Made by a program: the position numbers and the translations under genes
Notes under the pieces: generated by a model
Databases searched by the model: none
What the model saw: the letters and a program-made list of their open reading frames with translations, nothing else
What the model was told of the DNA's origin: nothing
Part shown: positions 15,470 to 28,100 of the stretch, piece by piece
Layout of the letters: the number at the start of each line of letters is the position of its first letter
Position numbering within the stretch: the first letter of the stretch is position 1
Origin: Glycera tridactyla
Taxonomy: Eukaryota
Assembly (NCBI GenBank): GCA_965644265.1
Contig: OZ286472.1
Span: forward strand, 52,514,001 to 52,578,000
Reading direction: 5' to 3'
DNA: 64,000 bases

Positions 15470-15821
15470 TCGTGTAGGGGATGCCCTCAGAGCCTATATA
15501 ACACGGTGCCTCGCTGATCTCGGCCTCACTTCCGTTTAGCTTCCAAGGTATGCAGACGTACCCTTTATCTCTACTCATCTTACACGGTGCCTTGCAGTTC
15601 TCGGCCTCACTTCCGTTTAGCCTCCAAGGTATGCAGACGTACCCTTTATCTCTATTTTATCTTACACTTGCTTGTCATGGCATGTCATCCCCATAGAGCA
15701 ATGGCTAGGCAGGCAGCCTACCGCCTGTATTTCAGGTCATTCATTTATCAAACACCATGAAGATGTGCTTTTGGAGAGAGTTATCAAAGCTGGTTTACAT
15801 GAGGAAACAGATAATGGTAAT
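15470..15821 (+). mobile_element. Host Ngaro H, part 1 (promoter, duplicated leader, SGNH N-terminus)
   Basis: TATATAA 15495; donor AAG|GTATGC 15548, duplicated at 15629 (81-bp unit); PIEQWLGRQPTACISGHSF...ETDNGN ending at AAT 15819-15821. Confidence 0.8.
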
Positions 15822-15931
15822 CTGATTTCTTTAGAAATCTATTTTTGAGAAAGGACATAAAGTAGTGGCTGTTAGTTTCAAACACGCTCACTAGGTGGTA
15901 GGATCTCTCCCTTAGGGGACTATTTTGTGTC
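15822..15931 (+). repeat. Split direct repeat A1 of N4 (110 bp)
   Basis: Identical base for base to 22237-22346. Confidence 0.9.
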
Positions 15932-16078
15932 TAGAACTTTGTCATAAGAATTTATTCCAAATGAACGGCAAGCTATAGATGTCTATAATTTTGTCTATTA
16001 TATATTGTCTACCTTTGTTACAAAAATCTTTCTTGTTTTAGGAATTTGGAAGATGTGACCAGTGGCGCCCTCACTGCA

Positions 16079-16137
16079 TATATAAAGCAGAAACACGTGT
16101 TGCTCGGCCCATTTCGGTTGAGTCGTTGAAGGTGACG
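16079..16137 (+). promoter_or_regulatory. TATA box, ~25-nt non-coding leader exon and 5' splice donor
   Basis: TATATAAA 16079; AAG|GTGACG 16132. TATA-to-donor spacing is 53-55 nt in five copies. Confidence 0.65.
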
Positions 16138-16174
16138 TGTTTATTCTTTCAACCTATCTTGTCCAATTTGGTTT

Positions 16175-16927
16175 ATGGCTTGTTTCAGACCTAAGGCACC
16201 TTTTGTGCCTATCGAACAGTGGCTAGGGCGGAAGCCCAAGGCCCTTATTCTTGGTCATTCGTTTGTAAGACATCAAAATGAAGATTTATGGGACCAAATC
16301 GTGGATAAGGGTTGGCAAGCTGACATTGATTCTGGCCGCTTGAAACGTGGAGTAGCTAACGCGCGACTCATGAACCTATCTGAAACGTTCCAAGAGGTTA
16401 ACTTTAGAACGTGTCACTTTCTCAAAGCATACCCTACCAACTCTGATATAGACGATGAACTATTGGCACTCCATGCCTTAGCTCCGGACGTTGTATTGCT
16501 AGACTTTGGGTCTAATGACCTAGTTAGACCGGAAAACAATGCTACTAATTTAGCACAACAACTTGTTGATATGGGCCGTTATATCCATACACTATCTTCG
16601 GTGAGAATTGTCTGCTTCATGTCTTGTTTAGACAGAACCTCTGCTCCTTCTTTTTTCCGGAAAAGAGCGCTGGAATTCAATTGTTACCTAGAGTGGGTAT
16701 GTGAAAATGAATTTGGCCTTCGCTTCCATGAAACCAGGGGGTTTGGGAGGTTGGAACCTTTCACACCACGTACTGTCTCTAAATGGAGTCCGGATGGCAT
16801 CCACCCTCTCAAAGGGTCAGTCTACTTTCGACGATATAGATTACAGCTTCGTCAAGCGCTTTTATCAAGCATTCCGGATCTTGGAAGGGCTATTCGTAAC
16901 TTCCGGATACGGGCTCCACTCAACTGA
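16175..16927 (+). CDS. SGNH/GDSL-type hydrolase (esterase), intact
   Basis: Block I ILGHSF (Ser nucleophile), block III DFGSNDL, block V DGIHP; 250 aa. Confidence 0.85.
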   Translation: MACFRPKAPFVPIEQWLGRKPKALILGHSFVRHQNEDLWDQIVDKGWQADIDSGRLKRGVANARLMNLSETFQEVNFRTCHFLKAYPTNSDIDDELLALHALAPDVVLLDFGSNDLVRPENNATNLAQQLVDMGRYIHTLSSVRIVCFMSCLDRTSAPSFFRKRALEFNCYLEWVCENEFGLRFHETRGFGRLEPFTPRTVSKWSPDGIHPLKGSVYFRRYRLQLRQALLSSIPDLGRAIRNFRIRAPLN

Positions 16928-17072
16928 AATGGGCTAGTTATGTGAGATTCTGTTGTTTTTCATTTGTTATACATTATTTTCACAAGTTATCTTTATTTAT
17001 TTTCGTTTCTTTATGAAACTGGTTATGTTAGTCATGCACAAATACCTGTGGGAATTTGTTTCGGTTTTTTAG

Positions 17073-18980
17073 ATGGCCAAACGTGGCCACTCCCTTGATA
17101 CGGATGAGCGTATCAAACGCAAACCTGAAGCAGTTGGTAGACATCCGGATTCTGTGGATTATGTGATCGTCGATGGACATTGCAGCAGCAAGGATCCTTT
17201 CCTAGATCTCTTAGGGGTTAAGGATACTCAAGCTAGCGCTCCTTCTCAGGTTGGTGATTCACAGTTATCGCAGATACCGTGTGCTCAACCCGTTAATAGT
17301 TCATCTGGAACTATCTTCACTCAATCTGCTGGGAGCCTTTCTTTTGAATCCCAACGCTTATCAATGGGTCAAAAATTGGATAGGCTTCAAAGACATGCTG
17401 CCAATGCGACATCAGTACAGAATAGGCATGTTATCAGCTCCGTGGGACAACCATTCGCCCAGCACACGCATACTGCCTCTGTTTTTAACCCTATCCTCAG
17501 CCAACCTCAGTGTATTCCTTCTAATGCTTTGAATGATAACAGTATGAACTTTTCTTTACACAGGCAATCTCTGCCGGACGAGCGAGCTGACCTTCGTTCA
17601 GCACTAGCATCTGCTGCAAACCAAATGGAGAATCTGTCCACCTTTATGACTGGCATTCAGGAACGTTTAGACGCTATAGACGATGGGCAACACACCAACC
17701 ATTTAAAGGGCAACAACATTCCGACATCTTGTCAAGGTAATTTCTCTTCAGCTAGTTCCTTACCCAGGGCGTCGGCTAAAGATTCAGACATGCGCTCAAA
17801 AATCGCTTCAAACAATTCATCTTCTCTCTTTCCCATGGGATTTGTGCATGACAGACTGACTCACGGACAAACGAACTTGCATACGTTAACGAATACGCAC
17901 TTATCTAACGACAAAGACGATCGCTTGAATTCATCTTCTCGCGGTTCAGGAATTTTTCCCTTTCCGCAGAATACAGGTTCTGGTAATCTTCCTTCTTATA
18001 ATACTGTTTCGATGCCAGGTTCGGGATACATGTCTGTTCCGAATGTTTCTGATTCGCACCACATGTCCATGTATCAATTACTAGAGAATCTAAGATCTGG
18101 AGTGAATAGTAATACTACTGCCTCCACTCGGGCTCTTACGGATGCAGAAAAACAAATGGGTTTCCGTTTACCAATTCAGGGTTCTGAGGGTGATTCTCCC
18201 TCTTCTCCATTTGGTGTTTTTCCCACAGCTAAACATGTAGGTATTCCAGCCATAGATAACCCGGAAGCTAGACCTATCATTACGGCAGGGCTACCCATTG
18301 GTTTTGCAGTGGATCTCCAAACCAGGATCGACATTTGGCAAGATAAGTTTATAGACCTTGCTGAATTGCTTCAACCTGCTCATTTTGGAAACCAACAATA
18401 TCGTGTTGACGGGAAAACAGGGCAGTTCGTAGCTGCTAAAAAACGGAAAGCCATTAGAACGATTCACGAATGGGACCAAGCTTTCTTGGTTTTTCAAGCT
18501 ATCTATAATCAGCACCCCTTTAAAAGCATGGAACAAAAAGCACGAGATGGGTGTGATTTGCTAACTCACGTAAACGAAGTACGTGATATAGCTGCTAAAG
18601 GTGGTAACTTTCTCTTTTATGATATTAACTTTCGTGCTTTGAGAGCCCAAATGGCTTCTCCTTTTCCCTGGTCCACTTTTCACGTATCTTTGCATCAGAA
18701 GTCTTGGAAGACGGATATAGTGGATGGTTCTTCTGTTAAATCGGAAGCCTCTTCTTCTTCTTCCCCTAAAATTCCAAAAGGGGTCTGTCAGCTATTTAAT
18801 GCTCAAGGCAAACGTTGCCTTTTCCCAAACTGCATTTTTAAACACATTTGTGCCACCTGTTCAGGTTCTCACACGGTTTATGCATGCAGGAATGTCGGAA
18901 GTCATGGATCACAGAGTTCGGGAGTTAAATGCAAGTTTGCTGGAGGTAACGACTCCAATAAACCCTCTACGTCTCAATAG
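17073..18980 (+). CDS. gag: Gag-like ORF1 with C-terminal CCCH and CxxC-H-C zinc fingers
   Basis: 635 aa; GLPIG...WQDKFIDLAELL...IHEWDQAF core; CQLFNAQGKRCLFPNCIFKHICATCSGSHTVYAC. Confidence 0.85.
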   Translation: MAKRGHSLDTDERIKRKPEAVGRHPDSVDYVIVDGHCSSKDPFLDLLGVKDTQASAPSQVGDSQLSQIPCAQPVNSSSGTIFTQSAGSLSFESQRLSMGQKLDRLQRHAANATSVQNRHVISSVGQPFAQHTHTASVFNPILSQPQCIPSNALNDNSMNFSLHRQSLPDERADLRSALASAANQMENLSTFMTGIQERLDAIDDGQHTNHLKGNNIPTSCQGNFSSASSLPRASAKDSDMRSKIASNNSSSLFPMGFVHDRLTHGQTNLHTLTNTHLSNDKDDRLNSSSRGSGIFPFPQNTGSGNLPSYNTVSMPGSGYMSVPNVSDSHHMSMYQLLENLRSGVNSNTTASTRALTDAEKQMGFRLPIQGSEGDSPSSPFGVFPTAKHVGIPAIDNPEARPIITAGLPIGFAVDLQTRIDIWQDKFIDLAELLQPAHFGNQQYRVDGKTGQFVAAKKRKAIRTIHEWDQAFLVFQAIYNQHPFKSMEQKARDGCDLLTHVNEVRDIAAKGGNFLFYDINFRALRAQMASPFPWSTFHVSLHQKSWKTDIVDGSSVKSEASSSSSPKIPKGVCQLFNAQGKRCLFPNCIFKHICATCSGSHTVYACRNVGSHGSQSSGVKCKFAGGNDSNKPSTSQ

Positions 18981-20535
18981 CTATTTAGAAGGGTTTCCTC
19001 CAGGTGAGAGGAATTATATTGTTGAAGGTTTTACTCGAGGCTTTGACATTGGGTTTACAGGTTTATCTCCTGCTTATAGGGGTCAAAATTCTCCTTCTAT
19101 TCAAGAGAATTGGGAGGTAGCTCATCGTCTAGTTTTAGACGAAGTTAATCTTGGCCGTATTGCGGGTCCATTTTCAGAGCCACCTTACTTAAATTTACAG
19201 GTCTCCCCTATATCGGTAGTACCGAAATGTGCTCCAGGGTCATTCAGACTTATTCATAATCTTTCAGCACCTTATAATGTACATTCAATTAATTTTCATA
19301 TACAAGACTCTGCAGCTTCTGTTCAATACATGACAACGCAAAAGGTTATTGATTACGTGATCGATATAGGCAAGTCAGCTTATATTTGCAAATCAGATAT
19401 TAAATCTGCCTTTCGTATTGTTCCGATAAAGCCAGACCAATTTCATCTTATGGGTCTACGCCTTGGTTCTGATTTCTACATCAATAAATGCTTAGCCATG
19501 GGAGCGAGATCCTCCTGCAAAATCTTCGAACGTTTTTCCTGTGCCATACAGTGGATTTGCAATCATAAGCTAGGCATCTCCTGTATGGCGCATATGATTG
19601 ACGACTTCTGTATCGTCGCTAATGGCTATGATGAGTGTTGTAGGCAGCTGGCCGTTTTTCAGTCTTTTTGCTCAGAGATAGGCATTCCTCTTTGCCCCAA
19701 AAAGACGGAATATCCTCGACAAGCAATGTCATTTTTAGGCATTGAGATTGACGTAGTTAGAGGCTTTGCTCGTATTCCTACAGATAAGCTATCCAAATAT
19801 GCTCAGGCTATTGAGCATATATTAAGCGCAGGTTGCTGCTCCTTTGGGGTAATGCGTTCACTAGTGGGCAAATTGAATTGGAGTGCATCGTTAATTCCTA
19901 CGGGCAAGTCCTTTTTGCATGGGTTGATTGACTCCACTAAAGGTTTATCCAACCCAGCACACATGATTGTCTTTTCAAATGCTGTAGTTAAGGACTTGTC
20001 CATGTGGCTTACATTTCTTTCATCTTATAACGGATACTCTTTCCTTAGAGATGTCACGATGAGACGCCATCATCCGGAACACATTTTCTCTGATGCCTGT
20101 AAATTTGGGGCTGGCGTTATTTACCGAAACCTATGGTTTAAACTTGATTTCATAGGCAAGTGGTGTGAACAAAATATCGCCTTTTTGGAATTTTTTCCTC
20201 TTCTAGTTGCTTTGGTAGTTTTCAGATTATCTTTGTGCCACAAAAAGGTCTATTTTCATAGTGATAATATGGCCGTAGTTGAGGTGGTCAATAGGAGATC
20301 AGCTAAAGATCCCTTATTATTGAGCATTATGAGACACATAATGCTCTTCGTTCTTTTGAACGATATAGACATCCATGCGATTCACATTCCTGGGGTAGAG
20401 AATGATTTACCTGATCGCATTTCCCGATCTAATTTTTCACAGGACGATCTTCTCAAAGCAGGCCTAGCTTTGCATCCGGTTCCTGTACCCCAAGACTACG
20501 ATCCAACACTTTGTACCCGCTGGTGTGTCGTTTAG
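18724..20535 (+). CDS. pol: Reverse transcriptase + RNase H (Ngaro type)
   Basis: VTTPINP, LGRIAGPF, FRLIHNLSAP, KSDIKSAFR, HMIDDF, FLGIEID; RH: FSDAC, NIAFLEF, FHSDN, NDLPDRISR. The true start is uncertain (ATG 18724 or 18880). Confidence 0.92.
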   Translation: MVLLLNRKPLLLLPLKFQKGSVSYLMLKANVAFSQTAFLNTFVPPVQVLTRFMHAGMSEVMDHRVRELNASLLEVTTPINPLRLNSYLEGFPPGERNYIVEGFTRGFDIGFTGLSPAYRGQNSPSIQENWEVAHRLVLDEVNLGRIAGPFSEPPYLNLQVSPISVVPKCAPGSFRLIHNLSAPYNVHSINFHIQDSAASVQYMTTQKVIDYVIDIGKSAYICKSDIKSAFRIVPIKPDQFHLMGLRLGSDFYINKCLAMGARSSCKIFERFSCAIQWICNHKLGISCMAHMIDDFCIVANGYDECCRQLAVFQSFCSEIGIPLCPKKTEYPRQAMSFLGIEIDVVRGFARIPTDKLSKYAQAIEHILSAGCCSFGVMRSLVGKLNWSASLIPTGKSFLHGLIDSTKGLSNPAHMIVFSNAVVKDLSMWLTFLSSYNGYSFLRDVTMRRHHPEHIFSDACKFGAGVIYRNLWFKLDFIGKWCEQNIAFLEFFPLLVALVVFRLSLCHKKVYFHSDNMAVVEVVNRRSAKDPLLLSIMRHIMLFVLLNDIDIHAIHIPGVENDLPDRISRSNFSQDDLLKAGLALHPVPVPQDYDPTLCTRWCVV

Positions 20536-21404
20536 TGGAAAGCTCTTTCGCACGTTCCACAGTAGTGAATTATAATAAGGTCTGGTCAGATTTTTGTACT
20601 TTTACTTATGAACATCAGCTTATTTGGTCTTACGAAGCCGTGGCTTTATATGTAGCTTTTCTCTACCAGCAGGGTTTGAAAGCAAATTCTATCAAATCTC
20701 GTTTATCGGCTATATCCCACGGTTTGAAACTATTTAACGAATCGGATTGGTGCAAACATTATTTGGTGGTACGTACAGTCATGGGCATTAGTAAGGAAGT
20801 TTCCGTGGCTGACCAACGTTGGCCTATTAACAAATCTTTACTCAATCTATTAGTAGAAGCTATTGTTTCTACTTTGGGCATTTCCTTTGATGCTTTGCTT
20901 TTGACAGCTATTTTTTCATGGGCATACACTGCTTGCCTTCGGGTATCCGAATATTCTAAGACTGGTTCGAGTAATCATGCTATTCAATTTCATGATATTG
21001 CTCCTATTGGCGAGCTTGGTAACTTGGTTGCTTTCGAGTTAGTTCTACGTTCGTATAAATTTTCATCTGGACAAAGAACCTTTATACTCAAGCAAGACCT
21101 TAATTCTGTATCCTGTCCTGTAGCCGCTATGCAACGCTATTTGAATGTAAGAGGTACATGTCCAGGCCAACTTTTCATACGCAGCGGTAAGCCAGTGCTT
21201 AGTTCTTTTGTCAACCATTGGCTTAAGGTTATTGGGAACTTAGTCTTGGGTTCTAGTCATGGTTTAACTAGTCACTCATTTAGGATAGGCAGATGCCTTG
21301 ACTGGGCAGCGGAAGGATGTTCGGACGAGCAAATCAGGATTCGAGGTAGATGGTCGTCGTCAGCATTTCGTTCGTATGTGAGACCCAATTCGGTTATTCT
21401 GTAG
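20511..21404 (+). CDS. Tyrosine recombinase; frame open from ~20433 with no N-terminal ATG
   Basis: Catalytic residues: ACLRVSEY (R), SYKFS (K), SHSFRIG (HxxR), RGRWSS (W), AFRSYV (Y). Confidence 0.92.
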   Translation: MYPLVCRLVESSFARSTVVNYNKVWSDFCTFTYEHQLIWSYEAVALYVAFLYQQGLKANSIKSRLSAISHGLKLFNESDWCKHYLVVRTVMGISKEVSVADQRWPINKSLLNLLVEAIVSTLGISFDALLLTAIFSWAYTACLRVSEYSKTGSSNHAIQFHDIAPIGELGNLVAFELVLRSYKFSSGQRTFILKQDLNSVSCPVAAMQRYLNVRGTCPGQLFIRSGKPVLSSFVNHWLKVIGNLVLGSSHGLTSHSFRIGRCLDWAAEGCSDEQIRIRGRWSSSAFRSYVRPNSVIL

Positions 21405-21634
21405 GGCCGCCTGTTTCTTTAGTTATTGTGGGGCAGGCGTCTATATTTTTCCTGGATTGCTTATGTTTCGACTACGTTTGACGTCATCGTATGTCTTATG
21501 ACGTCATCACGCATCTCCATTGTCTTGTGACGTCACGTGATCCACATTCATCTGGGATATACCATGCTGCTGAATCATTGTGTTTTTCCTCTTCGGAGGC
21601 CTGTAACATGGGGGGGGGGAGGCTTTACTTCTTG

Positions 21635-21660
21635 AATAAATATGTGTTTGTGTATGATTT
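21635..21660 (+). terminator. Polyadenylation signal AATAAA with GT-rich downstream element
   Basis: G-run, then AATAAA 21635-21640, then tatgtgtttgtgt. Same arrangement in N6 at 30542. Confidence 0.55.
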
Positions 21661-22221
21661 ATATCTTGAATTCAACACCTTTGTTTTCCTTGTATTCAAT
21701 TAAAGGAGTTTACAGGATCCAGGTATCCTTATTGCTAGGGAGGTTTTCCTCCTGTATTCGAGCTGTTTAATTTTGTTGATGCTCAGCATCTAGTTGAAAT
21801 TTCCAGGGGAAAAATTCCATTTTCGACTCTGAAGTCTGCAAAAGCTAGTTGCGGTTCAGACTTCAAAGTCTTGTTACCTGTGCCTCCTGGCACTTTTTGG
21901 ATTAATTTCAAAATTCCAGTCATTAGGACTTGTAGTGCCAGGAGGCATGGGTGTTGACAATTTGAGAACTATGAGCCAGACATAACACTAAATGTTATTT
22001 CTTTTGTACACTTCTCCCAGCAATCAGTGCTAATCAATATCACGTAAGTCTGCGGGCTTAGAATGAGTCACAACCTAAGTGGATGCTTAGGCGCTTAGGC
22101 TTATGATCATTGCAAGAATTACACTTATACTTGGCATACGCAGTAACACACAAAGACCATGATACGATTTGACTTCATTGATGGAATTCTGCATAATATT
22201 GGTGTCTTCTTACTATTATGG

Positions 22222-22363
22222 GAATTTTGCAAAAATCTGATTTCTTTAGAAATCTATTTTTGAGAAAGGACATAAAGTAGTGGCTGTTAGTTTCAAACAC
22301 GCTCACTAGGTGGTAGGATCTCTCCCTTAGGGGACTATTTTGTGTCCAGAATTTTGCAAAAAT
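22222..22363 (+). repeat. B1 (22222-22236), A2 (22237-22346), B2 (22349-22363) of N4
   Basis: B = gaattttgcaaaaat (15 bp) on both sides of a perfect copy of A1. Confidence 0.85.
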
Positions 22364-25119
22364 GTACCTCATGACCAAATTTACGCTAACCAACTTGATC
22401 TTGATACGTTCAGCGTCGTCAATTTCCGCCACTGCTTGTTTGTAAACAATTACGATTACGAGGATATAGCAGACGAGATCCTTCCACTTGCAGTCTTGAA
22501 ACTGGATCTCTTAGTTCTCAATCTTGGATCCAATTACCTTACACGTTGGGATATAGAACCACAATCATTGGCTAAAGATTATTTCGATCTTGCCGTCAGG
22601 ATCAGGAAGGCATGTAAGGTAAAGATGGTTGTGCTTATGTCTTGTGTGGATCGCTTGGTAGGTCATCCTAATTTCAGACAGCGTGCTGCTATCTTCAATA
22701 AGTTTACAGAACAAAACTGCGATGGTGTTCTAGGCGTGGATTTTTACCATGTCCGTGGTTTCGGTTCCTTCATGGAAGGCGTTCCTCCCACTGGGAAGAC
22801 ATGGAGCAGAGACTGGATTCATCCAGAAAAACATTCGCTCGGTACACAAAAGAGATGCGCCAGACGGCACTTACCAGTTTGCCTTCTTTAGGCTGGGTCG
22901 TCCGCAGCATTAACAGGAGCTATTAATGGAAGTGAGCAACCTTGACTGACAGACGACAAGGGAAGGGGGGTGGGGGAGAAGAGGGACGGATTTTACTTTC
23001 TGTTCGTTTGGTACAATGCCTGTCGTTTACCACCTTTTGATTTAGGGTTATTACATTGTTATTTTATATCATACTTATTTTTTCTCATGCTTATTTTCCG
23101 AAATTCTGTCTCGCCCTCAATATTTTCAGATGGCGAAGCGCATTTGTTCTGACGATTTTACCGGCCTCCACAAAAAAACGGCGACCATGGGCCATCCTCC
23201 TGATGCCAGTGTTTTCCATCCTGCAACTCAGGTAACTTACGACCCCTATACTGAACTATTATCGAATCATACGATGCCTGTCGTATCTGCTCATGACTTA
23301 TCTCCAAGTCTAATTCCTTGTGGCCAGACTGTAAATCCATCCCCGCCGAGGATTGCCTGTTCCTGATGCATCTTCAGGCTCTTTAGGTCCCAAGCTCAAT
23401 TATCTCAGATCTGCAGCTAGCAGGGCCTGCTCCATGCCGAATAGGCCATTGTTGAGTGGTATCAGAAGACCGGTATCTAATGCTTGTTATAGCACTTACA
23501 ATCATCCTGCATATGAACTCATTTGAAATTGCACTGTTACCAATGCAAATGTATCAGACACTGCACGATGTGCATCAGGAATTTAAGGTTACCATGGACT
23601 TTGCCATGCAATAAATGGCCACTATGAGTTCTGCAATGCAAAATATGCAGTCCAGGCTGGACAGATTATCTAACTGCCCTTCTCAAGGATCCGTTCAACG
23701 GTCGTCTGACTCGTTAACAGCACCACCAGGAGGTATGTTTGTTTGTTTGTTTGTTTAAGTTTAACGTCACTTAAACCCACTTGGGTTATATCGGACTGAA
23801 AAAACTGAAAATGCTGAAGAAAAGAGTCACTGCCTGCCGGGGGCCATCCCTACTCTGCGAAAGACAGCAGTGGATCTTTAACGTGCGTCAAGGAAAAGAC
23901 TCCTATCAGCACGGCCGGCCTTTGATATCCCAGTCGGCATGCACTGGGTTAGCATGCACACGATTCATATTTGTCTAAATATTCCCAATTCATGCAAATA
24001 ATCAAATATGTCTGTTGGATCGATTTTCATGAAAAGTTGCGTCATATTTTCAACATTGTGATACTTTACTCTAGTTTGCGATAGTTTTCTACAGTCGAGC
24101 AATAAATGTTTAACTGTGAGATGGCATCCGCATGCAAAGCAATTAGGATCGCCTTGTTTTTTCAGAAGGTGTGAATGGGTGAGATATGTATGTCCTATCC
24201 TCAGACGGGAAAGTACTATCTCCTCTCTTCTATTCATAGTTCTCACAGGAAATCTGTCCTCAAGTTTTGGTCTGATGTGATATAATTTATTTTGCTTTTT
24301 GGTTCCCTATTCATTCTGCCAGAGTTGGTCAATATAGAGCTTTATTCTTGGTTTGAAGTCAGAATAATGGATTTCCATCTCAGTGACTGGCAAACCTAGA
24401 GCCCTTTTGGCCGCTTTATCCGCTGCCTCATTTCCAGGAATTCCGATATGGCTCGGAATCCAGCAAAGTCTAACAGTCTTTTGATGATCTTTGATTTTTT
24501 TATACTCTTGCAAGATTTGCAAGAGTATACAGTTCCTGAGATTTCCCTGCAAGGCCTGCAGAGATGACAGGGAGTCTGTGAAAATTATGAATTTTTGTTT
24601 TTGTGACCTTGATAAGTATTTGAAAGCCATTAGTAAGGCCCTCAGTTCAGCTGAGAACACTGTTGACCAATCAGGTAATCTGCATGCATAGGAATTTTCT
24701 TCCTAATTCTACACATGCTGGTGTTCCCACACTTTTTTCCGAAGGATACTGATGAATGCTTATCTAATCGGCCTCCTAACTTGTGGAGACCTCACTTAAT
24801 TGGGAAGTCTCAATTGGGGGGAGGGAGACCTGACCTTACGCACAATATAACTGACGTTAACAGACAGACGGTCAACCCGACGCACACTCCTTTTGCTACG
24901 AGCTTACCTTCTATTTACCCTGACGTGCATTCTCATATGGACAACCCTTTGAACAACCATAACACAACGGTTGTTGATTATAGTAATGAAAATGTACCTT
25001 TGGAAAGAATGCGTCATGGTAGGTCTGCTCGTGAATCTAACGCGTCTTTGTCGTTGCATTCAGCAGCTAACGATGCGGGTTTCCGTGACTCGAGTGTTAC
25101 AGGCCCTTCTGCACATAAT
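22364..25119 (+). mobile_element. Host Ngaro H, part 2 (SGNH C-terminal two thirds, gag N-half)
   Basis: VPHDQIYANQLDLDTF...NLGSN...DWIHP; acceptor ttttcag|ATG at 23130 (MAKR...); interrupted by Nimb at 23736-24690; ends at AAT 25117-25119. Confidence 0.8.
23736..24690 (-). mobile_element. 5'-truncated I/Nimb-clade LINE (RNase H, C-terminal zinc knuckle, 3' UTR, (AAAC)n tail)
   Basis: FSAELRAL, IFTDSLS, WIPSHIGIPGNEAADKAAK; RLRIGHTYLTH...CFACGCHLTVKHLLLDC. Confidence 0.9.
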
Positions 25120-28100
25120 TTTATTTCTCGGAAATATCTTTTTGAAGAACGGAAGAAGTTGTGTGCTGCTGTTTTCCTTTTGGTAACGATAGGTGGAGCT
25201 TTAAATATTATGGGAAACGTATGTAACGCAATTTTGAACTATAGTATCAACGGGAAAATGTTCTAGAATTTATTCGACTTGTTTTTGAATATGTATAAAG
25301 TGTTACTTTGTTTACATTAAAAAAATATCTTGTTTCAGGTAGAATTGTTATGTGATCATCTGTGCATGCGCGAACCTATATATACGGGAGACTCGAGAGG
25401 GCTCGGCCATTTTCGGCCAGATCTGCAAGGTGACGATTCTTTCTTAGCTCTTAGCTCTTAGCATGAAGTACTTTAAACCCAAGTACCCATTTGTTCCAAT
25501 TGAACACTGGCTTGGGAGGCAATCTAAAGCGTTGGCTTTGGGACATTTGTTCGTGGCTCACCAAGACCAGGCCCTCTTGGAATTGGCAACTGAAGAGGGT
25601 TATTTGCCCGACATTGAAAGTGGGGTTTTGAGCCGTGGAGCAGTGAATGCCAGGTTGCTGAACCTAAATGAAACGTATTCTGTTGTCAATTTTCGGACAT
25701 GTCCATTCTTTAAAGTATATCCTAACGATGATGCAATCAATGACGAGCTGTTGGCGCTCAACGCTCTGGAACCAGACGTGGTTTTGTCCAATTTTGGGTC
25801 CAACGACCTGGTTCATTCTACAGACAATGCAAATGCATTGGCCGACGCGTTGTTTGACATTGGTGTCGATATCATTGACAGAGGGAAAGCTAAAGTGATC
25901 AATTTTATGGCATGTTTGGATAGGACAGCTGCGCCTAAAGGGTTTAGAGCCGGAGCGCTTGAAACAGCTTGAAGCATCTTGCATCAGTACGTTTGGTTTA
26001 CGTTTCCACAATACAAGTGGTTTTGGACGTCTTGAGGCTTTTACTCCCCGGTCAGTGCATATTTGGAGCCCAGATGGGATACGCCCTAGGAAGAACACGA
26101 AGTACTTTAGAAGGTACACAAATGAGAATGGCTCAACTCACATGTTACCTGAGCTGGGCAGAGTGGTCCGGGGCATTCGCACCAGGCTGGGTCTGGTCTA
26201 AAATGGGATTACCAGTTGTTATTGTTGTTGTTCGGATTGATTTGTTGTTTGTTGTTATGACTTTTTGCTGTGACACGCTTGCTCGGAAAATTTTGACTTT
26301 TAGGTGTCGAAGAGGAAGCTTACGGAGGACGTGGATGATCGTATAAAACGCATGCCAGCTGCTTTGGGAAAAATACCAAGAGGATATACTCCCGTTGATG
26401 GTCATGCAGCTAGCAAGGATCCTTTTCTTGAACTTTTGGGAGGTGCGAGTGCGACACCTATCGCACAGTCACAGGTGAGTGATGACATGTCTCAAATCTC
26501 TTGTGGACAGCGCAGTTCAGACTCATCTGGAGCTGACATATCTGTATCGGGGGGGGGGGGGGGGGGGTCTCAATCTCTGAACCTCATATCGGCTTGGGAA
26601 ACAACATGGACAGATTGAGACGTCATGCCGCCAATGCATGTCCTGTGAACAATAGACATATCTTCACCGGTATAGGGAGACCTGTCCCTAGTGTTGGCAA
26701 CTTTACTTCAGGGTTCGGCAATTTTCCTGGGCAGACTCAAACGCAAACTTTTTCCAATTCTGGTCAGATAGTCAACAATGCTCCTTTTACTTTGCATAGG
26801 CCTTACGCTGATAGTCTACGGGAGAATTTGAAAGCCTCGTTGGTTTCTGCAACGCAGCAGATGGACAACTTGTCAAAGATTATGTCGGACATCCAGACCA
26901 GAATCGACCATCTGGAAAGTTCACCAGCAGGTCCTGCAAGTGCTAGTGGGTTCGCTCCTACGAATCTGCCTTCATCTCAAGGTAATCATATTTCACATCC
27001 TCATAATGTTGGCGTTCAGACAAGCAGTTTGTCTGACCAGGATGAACGTCGGGGCACAGGGAGTGTATGTGCTTCACAGCGAGGGTTTCTGAGCAATGTG
27101 GGTGTCACAGCGACTTCAGACGGACAGACGGACAAAAATTTTCAAAATAATTTAGCTAATCATTTCAGAATGGATTTAGATGACCGCATACGGACAAACA
27201 GATTTCAACCAAATAGTGGTCTTCAGTTTTGAACCCTGGACTCGGTTTCAGATGATCAATATGCCATTGCTAATGGGTCTCAATTGCCTAGCGCTAGAGC
27301 AGCGAATAATGTGTCTACTTTTCACTTGCTTGAGAACATGAGGCGTGGTATGGCAGATAGAGGCGACGCTCGTCTGCTGCCTTTATGCGTGCAGCTGAAC
27401 AAGCTGGTATACGCAATCTGTTGCAGGATGAAATTCCGTCTGCTCAGCAGACAGGGGTGGCTTTGTTTGATGTTTCTGAGTCAAGGAAAGTAATCACGGC
27501 GGGGCTCCCCATAGGGTTTTGTGTAGATCTCCAAACGTAGGATCGACGTGTGGCAAGATAGGTGCGTCGATCTTGCAGAATTGCTACAACCAGCTAAAAT
27601 CTCAAATCCTGAATACAAAGTTGATGGGAGAACTGGTCATTTTGTTTTGGCGAAACGAAGAAAGGCTATTGAAAATATTCATGATTGGGACCAGGCATTT
27701 TTGGTATATCAGGCTATCTATTCACAGCACCCTTTCAAGAGTTTACAGCGGAAGGCTAAGGAAGGCTTAGATATGCTTACTCATATCAATGAGGTGAGGG
27801 ATATCACGTCTAAAGGAGGGAATTTTCTCTTTCACGACGAGAATTTTAGAGCTTTATGTGCGCAGATGGCGGACCCATTTCTGTGGTCCACCTTTCATGT
27901 AGACTTGCACCAGAAATGCTGGAAGGCGGATGTGGTTCAGAGTAACAATGTTCAATCAGATGACAGTGGAGGCGGTACCAAAGTACCCAAAGGTGTGTGC
28001 CAGTTGTACAATGCTCAGGGGAAGAGACGTCTCTTCCCCAACTGTATATTTAAGCACATTTGCGCATCTTGTACAGGCATTATCCTGCTTATGCATGCAG

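Follow-up and report, generated by a model that had tools for sequence, protein, structure and literature searches.

Exact loss of introns in genomic copies points to alternative splicing in a Ngaro-type retrotransposon of Glycera tridactyla with an SGNH hydrolase gene inside its first intron

The Xenopus Ngaro-like elements DIRS-53_XT and DIRS-54_XT carry an extra SGNH hydrolase open reading frame (ORF) of unproven function, described as lying after the tyrosine recombinase (YR) gene with all ORFs overlapping (PMC9210276; this and the other papers cited by PMC number are represented here by excerpts). How DIRS and Ngaro elements express their overlapping ORFs is an open question, and the printed suggestion for the Ngaro YR is frameshifting (Poulter and Butler 2015, quoted in PMC13003380). 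The text of PMC9210276 makes no mention of splicing or introns, and we found native splicing of DIRS or Ngaro elements reported in none of the excerpts of PMC9210276, PMC6681497, PMC7192593, PMC3783388, PMC4157794, PMC8547959 and PMC9341512; the Repbase reports, Goodwin and Poulter 2004 and Poulter and Butler 2015 lie outside this search and may describe the layout. Here we analyse N4, an element with an SGNH hydrolase ORF upstream of gag, in a stretch of 64,000 nucleotides (nt) from Glycera tridactyla (assembly GCA_965644265.1, contig OZ286472.1, positions 52,514,001 to 52,578,000 of the forward strand). We call this whole stretch the window and count positions from its first letter; all N4 features lie on its + strand, and copies elsewhere in the genome carry L numbers. 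An earlier sequence-only reading had proposed that the whole SGNH ORF lies inside a first intron and that one promoter feeds hydrolase, Gag and Gag-YR by alternative splicing, in a retrovirus-like strategy.

We find that introns 1 and 2 of this type of element have been exactly removed in other genomic copies and that two of the copies without intron 1 have complete repeats. We think it highly probable that one RNA gives rise to all of the element's proteins by alternative splicing. Transcription would start at the TATA-like and initiator-like (Inr-like) motifs in the A1 repeat, and the unspliced RNA would serve both as the genome and, from its first ATG, as the hydrolase mRNA. A first splice would give Gag, a first and second splice together would give the N-terminal part of Gag fused to Pol (GagN-Pol), and a further phase-1 splice to position 20443 would give GagN-YR. 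Two exact splices are preserved in natural processed copies, which makes the expression map testable with a few primer pairs.

The structure of N4 fits a Ngaro-type tyrosine-recombinase retrotransposon, an assignment made from layout and not from a tree of reverse transcriptase (RT) together with RNase H. It has four open frames, SGNH (16175–16927), gag (17073–18980), pol (18724–20535) and YR (20433–21404), and its relatives elsewhere in the genome read A1-SGNH-gag-pol-YR-B1-A2-B2, with no methyltransferase hit. The gag, RT/RNase H, YR order with overlapping ORFs is the Ngaro-like one. No methyltransferase domain was found after RNase H in the four pol proteins scanned with Pfam, unlike DIRS and PAT, and from the final RNase H motif to the end of pol there are only about 35 amino acids. 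Nor does the element have the DIRS-like arrangement, in which the terminal repeats are inverted and accompanied by an internal complementary region; its own repeats are direct and split as A1...B1-A2-B2, with A of about 290–360 nt, B of about 650–890 nt and pairs that are 98–100% identical in intact copies. N4 is thus like the Xenopus Ngaro elements in its A1...B1-A2-B2 repeats, its gag, RT/RNase H and YR, its lack of a methyltransferase and its SGNH ORF, but unlike them it has this ORF 5′ of gag, without overlap and inside an intron (PMC9210276). In the 81 copies examined, SGNH lies 0.5–1.3 kb upstream of gag and not downstream of YR as in the hydrolase-bearing amphibian elements. The family is large in this genome, with 1955 first-look candidates in the SGNH search, of which 150 were scored and are mostly without internal stops. 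The Atlas RVT_1 clusters matched are commonest in Mollusca, with some in Basidiomycota, which we treat only as a lead.

Intron 1 (16132–17072, 941 nt, AAG|GTGACG ... ttttttag|ATG) holds the whole SGNH ORF and is almost certainly real. In N4 it is preceded by a TATA-like box (TATATAAA) at 16079–16086 and by a predicted 21-nt non-coding exon 1 at 16111–16131, counted from the A of the Inr-like CCATTTC, the putative start site, to the donor. We screened 91 loci and used the 81 that have both an SGNH start and a gag start, setting the other 10 aside. An Inr-like motif CC[AG][CT]T(T/C)C is present in 75 of these 81 copies; a TATA-like word lies 23–37 nt before it in 68/75, and AG|GT lies 20–26 nt after it in 71/75, at +21/+22 in 68 of the 71, the control being AGGT in 5.8% of 10-nt windows in the SGNH coding region. 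An ATG falls between the Inr-like motif and the donor in only 3/71 copies, and the intron is 768–993 nt long (median 925, n=68). The gag ATG can be placed in 77 copies, and in 74 of these an AG abuts it or is separated from it by 1 nt. Because the copies are related, the donor, Inr, TATA and acceptor counts are not independent draws. The five TATA/GT pairs that the sequence-only reading had listed in the window (8660/8714, 12085/12140, 15495/15548, 16079/16132 and 25377/25430) are all there, with spacings of 54, 55, 53, 53 and 53 nt, the second pair being the weakest (TATATGAT; ATG|GTGATT). Its acceptors (ttttttag|ATG at 17073, ttttcag|ATG at 23130, cttttag|GTG at 26304 and, in copy N8, an AG 15 nt before the gag ATG) and its intron lengths for N4 (941 nt) and copy N6 (874 nt) are likewise borne out. 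For H, the older element that N4 interrupts, it had given about 959 nt; H has tandem donors, and we obtain about 957 nt when counting from the second of them (15629) and about 1040 nt from the donor at 15548.

The evidence that carries intron 1 comes from copies that lack it. We compared 150 gag-N matches by eye with 150 SGNH matches and fetched the 34 new ones without a listed neighbour, of which 32 have SGNH and 2 do not. Intron 1 is missing at its ends in 3 of the 150 gag-N matches, which belong to three families; two of these are clean and one has a 9-nt triplication. L036 shows an exact 953-nt loss relative to L033 with the junction ...gttgaatcgttgaag|ATGGCC, has A1=A2 (317 nt, 100%) and B1=B2 (872 nt, 100%), and keeps gag, pol and YR open. 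L096 (L092/L096) shows an exact 926-nt loss relative to L098 (94% identical) and has full repeats and three open ORFs; across L036 and L096, A1=A2 at 100% and B1=B2 at 99.8–100%. In L097 (L078/L097) the leader is joined to gag and the triplication follows; this copy is otherwise decayed. The leader|gag junction forecast earlier, ...CGTTGAAG|ATGGCCAAAC..., has accordingly turned up in L036, at the homologous site in L096 and L097, and in a contig of another subfamily from the sequencing run X1. This one 151-nt contig skips 941 nt with GT..AG ends on L026. Over the 108 letters on its gag side there is 1 difference from L026, compared with 16 between L036 and L026, and it is therefore a separate case from L036, from a fourth subfamily. 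The contig shows a joined form, not a start site. A search for RNA matching L026:1299-7790 listed no RNA run that contains it; X1 coverage of this stretch has depth in 13 of 30 bins, and the uncovered parts are uninformative on the other junctions. Intron 1 has GT...AG ends that are exactly removed in a processed form, as a U2 spliceosomal intron should. We infer that the intronless copies are most readily explained as reverse transcripts of spliced RNA that went back into the genome, and the complete A1/B1-A2-B2 repeats in two of the copies without intron 1, including the sequence upstream of the TATA box, point to the element's own machinery.

The second splice concerns gag and pol. The gag-like ORF (17073–18980, 635 amino acids) begins with the ATG directly after the intron 1 acceptor and has a C-terminal Cys/His motif; it has no Pfam match and is named gag by its position and this motif. 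The pol frame (18724–20535, Pfam RVT_1) encodes RT-RNase H with no methyltransferase and would be entered by splicing at 18890. No ATG is conserved past this point; across 17 copies the first one stands anywhere from 0 to 186 codons downstream. Scanning 17 close copies gave conserved donors at 17737 and 19004 and conserved acceptors at 17564, 18890 and 20443, mostly kept in distant families; the two donors and the acceptors at 18890 and 20443 are all phase 1. Intron 2 (17737–18889, 1153 nt, caag|GTAATT ... gcag|G, phase 1 to phase 1) was predicted from this conservation, and its removal fuses Gag residues 1–221 in frame to Pol. Only afterwards was its exact loss found in L107, which lacks 1177 nt relative to L123 (91–93% identical), tctcaag|GTAACT...cctgcAG|gaa, and has Gag-N fused in frame to Pol with intron 1 kept. 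We regard intron 2 as very probably real; the sequence-only reading did not contain the Gag-N/Pol splice.

Other odd copies were also looked at. By eye, we set the spacing of 150 YR matches against that in the lists for SGNH and gag, and fetched 20 odd ones; 19 of the 20, picked for a short or missing upstream part, are not splice products, and neither are five gag matches with odd open-frame lengths (L102-L106). The coding sequence was compared over 11–12 lineages. Outside ORF overlaps, 678 columns are conserved in amino acid; the codon is invariant in 9 of them, and 5 of these 9 fall on candidate splice sites or on an unexplained site at 17250. One of the candidate sites is the acceptor tacacag|G at 17564, which would open an internal exon within gag (17564–17736); an Arg codon there is invariantly AGG in 11/11 lineages with Arg, and the candidate exon encodes a conserved helical segment resembling a coiled coil. 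The site at 17250 is a conserved ctcag|GTKGGT in gag (ctcag|GTTGGT in N4) in phase 0, with CAG invariant in 12/12 lineages. It has both donor and acceptor features, and no partner was identified.

Several observations weigh against this reading of introns 1 and 2. The intron 1 donor GTGACG is a weak consensus match, ranking 6 of 293 GTs, and the joint in X1 rests on one contig from a run that is only guessed to be RNA (share 0.05) and may be DNA. The intron 2 donor at 17737 is off its aligned position in 2/15 copies, and the codon-invariance test is partly circular because it was their conservation in close copies that first singled the sites out. The insertion route of L107 is not established, because A2 and B2 are not detectable in it. 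Finally, unrelated internal deletions are common, with at least 8 others of 36–1128 nt in aligned pairs, at scattered non-GT..AG ends.

The third splice, to YR, is less firmly placed. The YR frame (20433–21404, 323 codons) has R, HxxR, H/W and Y motifs read from its translation and weak Pfam matches to Phage_int_SAM_1 and Phage_integrase. It has no conserved start codon, the first ATG lying 25–227 codons after the acceptor in 14 copies. Candidate intron 3 (19004–20442, ccag|GTGAG ... tttttcacag|G, phase 1 to phase 1) offers a possible route, with its donor present in 15/17 and its acceptor CAG in 15/17 diverse copies, and judging by these conserved motifs we lean towards GagN-YR being made by a phase-1 splice to 20443. 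The same donor is missing in 2/17 copies, however, and the YR acceptor reads GAG|G in 2/17; searches for gag-donor|YR and pol-donor|YR junctions gave 0 matches each with degenerate patterns covering only some families, and the YR-region DNA search returned no close copy starting at the YR acceptor. That no YR junction copy was found also suits an explanation in which introns 1 and 2 are real and YR comes from a -1 ribosomal frameshift in pol or from an internal start. YR overlaps pol by 94–157 nt in the -1 frame in 14/14 copies, the YR frame of N4's close relatives includes an ATG 25 codons in, and frameshifting is what has been proposed for the Ngaro YR (Poulter and Butler 2015, quoted in PMC13003380). 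Yet a canonical in-frame slippery heptamer is present in only 1/14 pol/YR overlaps, the YR frame opens just 10–28 nt before a conserved pyrimidine-rich CAG|R in 13/14 copies, and the YR acceptor is phase 1 like both donors, so we consider a frameshift or internal start unlikely, although it keeps an appreciable chance. The proposal of alternative splicing thus stands for the intron-1 (Gag) splice, whereas for Gag-YR the conserved phase-1 acceptor suggests it and two junction patterns had no match.

As to where the RNA begins, the start would lie at the TATA/Inr motifs in A1, near 16111. A1 (15819–16128), a 98% repeat with 22234–22356, contains the promoter-like motifs and almost the whole of exon 1 and stops 3 nt short of the donor. 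The A1 and A2 of intact relatives are 98–100% identical, with A ending 0–4 nt before the donor, and A2 runs on into a C-rich tract without a donor. About 37 nt upstream of the TATA box, inside A, lies an acceptor-like ttcttgttttag|G (16030–16042), and a similar T-rich AG|G is found near 16030–16042 in most families by eye. Splicing could then be real with exon 1 internal (acceptor 16042 to donor 16132) to transcripts that start further upstream in A1 or arise by read-through, TATA/Inr not being the only or main start. The conservation of this ttttag|G speaks for such an exon, and so does the X1 junction contig, which begins about 22–24 nt upstream of the Inr-like motif and is thus either DNA of another intronless copy or the mark of a start further upstream. 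We nevertheless find an internal exon 1 improbable, since the TATA-like word stands about 30 nt before the Inr-like motif in 68/75 copies, the Inr-donor distance is fixed at 21–22 nt in 68/71, and X1 may be DNA. The A2 copy of the ttttag|G would itself sit within the transcript between B1 and B2, and it is a speculative thought that it could help the B2 poly(A) site to be chosen over its identical counterpart in B1 (AATAAA at 21635).

The ORF inside intron 1 (16175–16927, 250 amino acids) is an SGNH/GDSL hydrolase with the catalytic motifs GHS, GSND and DGIH. Its Pfam match to Lipase_GDSL_2 (E=3.2e-7) is just under the curated cut-off, and its predicted structure (predicted local distance difference test, pLDDT, 81.9) matches PAF-acetylhydrolase (PAF-AH) and GDSL structures, so that the SGNH fold is found together with the catalytic Ser, the oxyanion Asn and Asp-x-x-His. 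A single-sequence homolog search gave none at E<=0.001 and comparison by sequence with solved structures gave nothing significant; a profile search gave 512 representatives, 4 of them at E<=1e-30, without genomic context. The ratio of nonsynonymous to synonymous substitution rates (dN/dS) is 0.03–0.08 in the 6 pairs, out of 7, that have a finite dS, which is purifying selection similar to that on pol. Of the 33 copies with a further ATG ahead of the aligned SGNH start, 32 have it in frame. This selection and the in-frame ATGs fit translation from an intron-retaining RNA. Alternatively, the hydrolase could have a short RNA to itself, with polyadenylation ahead of gag, or gag could be driven by a promoter of its own in the SGNH-gag spacer, which is T/G-rich and has a conserved block just past the SGNH stop. 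Both are very improbable: A(A/T)TAAA occurs within 260 nt before gag in 2/81 copies, the N4 intron has no poly(A) hexamer, and a separate promoter before gag, which the sequence-only reading had named as the result that would speak against it, finds little support in TATA[AT]A[AG], seen within 200 nt before gag in 1/81.

In one family (L052 at 957-1706, and L061; both reverse-complemented loci), a full SGNH ORF with dN/dS of 0.054 has GSYD instead of GSND and DGVL instead of DGIH. That it lacks the oxyanion Asn and catalytic His yet is under purifying selection suggests a non-catalytic role. Together with the hydrolase-less, otherwise open-framed L036 and L096, this family makes a natural comparison set for SGNH.

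That the intronless copies are ordinary deletions (RT template switching or repair at AG/AGG microhomology), with SGNH and gag reached by leaky scanning or reinitiation, has hardly any claim on belief, for although at every junction the two sides have 2–3 nt (AG or AGG) in common and deletions of the microhomology type are found in these elements (L034, 45 and 36 nt; L108, 1085; L109, 123 and 851; L125, 214; L097, 1128; L031, 296), those have scattered non-GT..AG ends, whereas intron-1 loss recurs at one pre-specified site in three families and the X1 contig, intron-2 loss falls at a site predicted beforehand, and the intron 1 donor is kept in 71/75 copies.

If splicing is the source of the intronless copies, the spliced RNA must have been copied. 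If copying follows the general split-repeat model, A's last 18 nt would act as the terminal redundancy, intact in both RNA forms; as A stops 0–4 nt before the donor, the spliced RNA would keep this redundancy and could be copied. The question raised is why an element would keep a gene in an intron that can be deleted in one step when spliced RNA is reverse-transcribed. Only about 2% of the sampled copies lack the intron, and so copying probably either favours the unspliced RNA or is helped in cis by the hydrolase. We tentatively suggest, at somewhat less than even chances, an inverted retroviral logic in which the genomic RNA translates the accessory hydrolase only, Gag, GagN-Pol and GagN-YR are all spliced and share a Gag N-terminal assembly tag, and the hydrolase or an intron signal marks the unspliced RNA for copying in cis. 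Such marking, if true, would explain why the intron, which copying could otherwise do without, is kept in about 98% of the sample. Of the retrovirus-like strategy proposed earlier, one spliced RNA is supported, but the layout is the reverse of the retroviral one, because here the unspliced RNA would encode an accessory protein and Gag would need a splice.

Other retroelements share parts of this arrangement. In the Ty1/copia element EVD, one transcript is alternatively spliced for the Gag mRNA, the full-length RNA encoding the catalytic polyprotein and the spliced RNA being short and early-terminated (PMC5580714); unlike copia, the unspliced RNA of N4-type elements would encode the accessory hydrolase only, and Pol would also need a splice. 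Dependence of Pol on splicing is a likeness to foamy virus (PMC7828637) and to Ogre LTR (long terminal repeat) elements, where an intron is removed from a subset of transcripts so that the whole polyprotein is translated (PMC6317226). Foamy virus makes Pol as a separate protein and Gag from genomic RNA (PMC7828637), whereas N4-type Pol would be fused to the first ~221 Gag residues and Gag itself would need a coding intron removed. Penelope-like elements also keep an intron upstream of the main ORF through retrotransposition, but their introns in the 5′ untranslated region are non-coding and 75–751 nt long (PMC8557442), while the N4-type intron carries a whole conserved gene and intronless copies are rare. 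In the excerpts for these compared systems, we found no accessory gene inside a first intron with Gag behind the splice.

SGNH esterases recur in long interspersed nuclear elements (LINEs), LTR elements, Penelope-like elements and Ngaro, and their role is unproven. The ZfL2-1 SGNH esterase (CR1/L2/RTEX ORF1p) is active and binds phospholipids (PMC3905857), which may serve by analogy as a lead for the N4-type protein, the likeness being that both are retroelement-borne; the ZfL2-1 structure is not among the listed fold matches of our SGNH model. GDSL ORF3 of rotifer LTR and Athena elements is also retroelement-borne (PMC5408684). The CR1/L2/RTEX and rotifer SGNH/GDSL sequences are ORF1 domains or 3′ ORFs, according to the same excerpts, unlike the 5′ intronic ORF of the N4 type.

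At the 3′ end of N4, B1 (21430–22233) begins about 25 nt past the YR stop and has the start and end motifs common to B1 and B2 of intact relatives. It is followed by a partial A2 joined to the last bases of B2 (22234–22363), N4's 3′ repeats being internally deleted. Directly after A2, in a spacer of about 30–45 nt before B2, a C-rich tract (CCCACCACCGCCCC-like) is present in every copy shown (L023, L025-L028, L030, L032, L033, L035, L036, L043, L049-L055, L057 and L061) and is a candidate priming or strand-transfer signal. The 3′ ends of L035 and L053 have extra tandem B-A-B units, with three B and two downstream A repeats.

Within the window, N4 is inserted into the SGNH ORF of H and splits that element. 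The 5′ part of H (15495–15818, +) has a TATA box at 15495, tandem donors at 15548 and 15629 and SGNH residues ~10–56; the 3′ part of its SGNH ORF and the acceptor ttttcag|ATG at 23130 lie at 22364–23130 (+). Copy N6 (25377–26303, +) has its TATA box at 25377 and an intron at 25430–26303 (874 nt) with a broken SGNH ORF. Between H's gag and N6 there is an unrelated insertion at 24307–25266 with ORFs at 24307–24630 (-) and 24715–25266 (+, no Pfam match). From 8660 to 51371 all tblastn matches to SGNH, gag, pol and YR are on the + strand, forming a dense, nested, same-orientation cluster of divergent YR elements; self-targeting and a locus like a PIWI-interacting RNA (piRNA) cluster are both possibilities for it.

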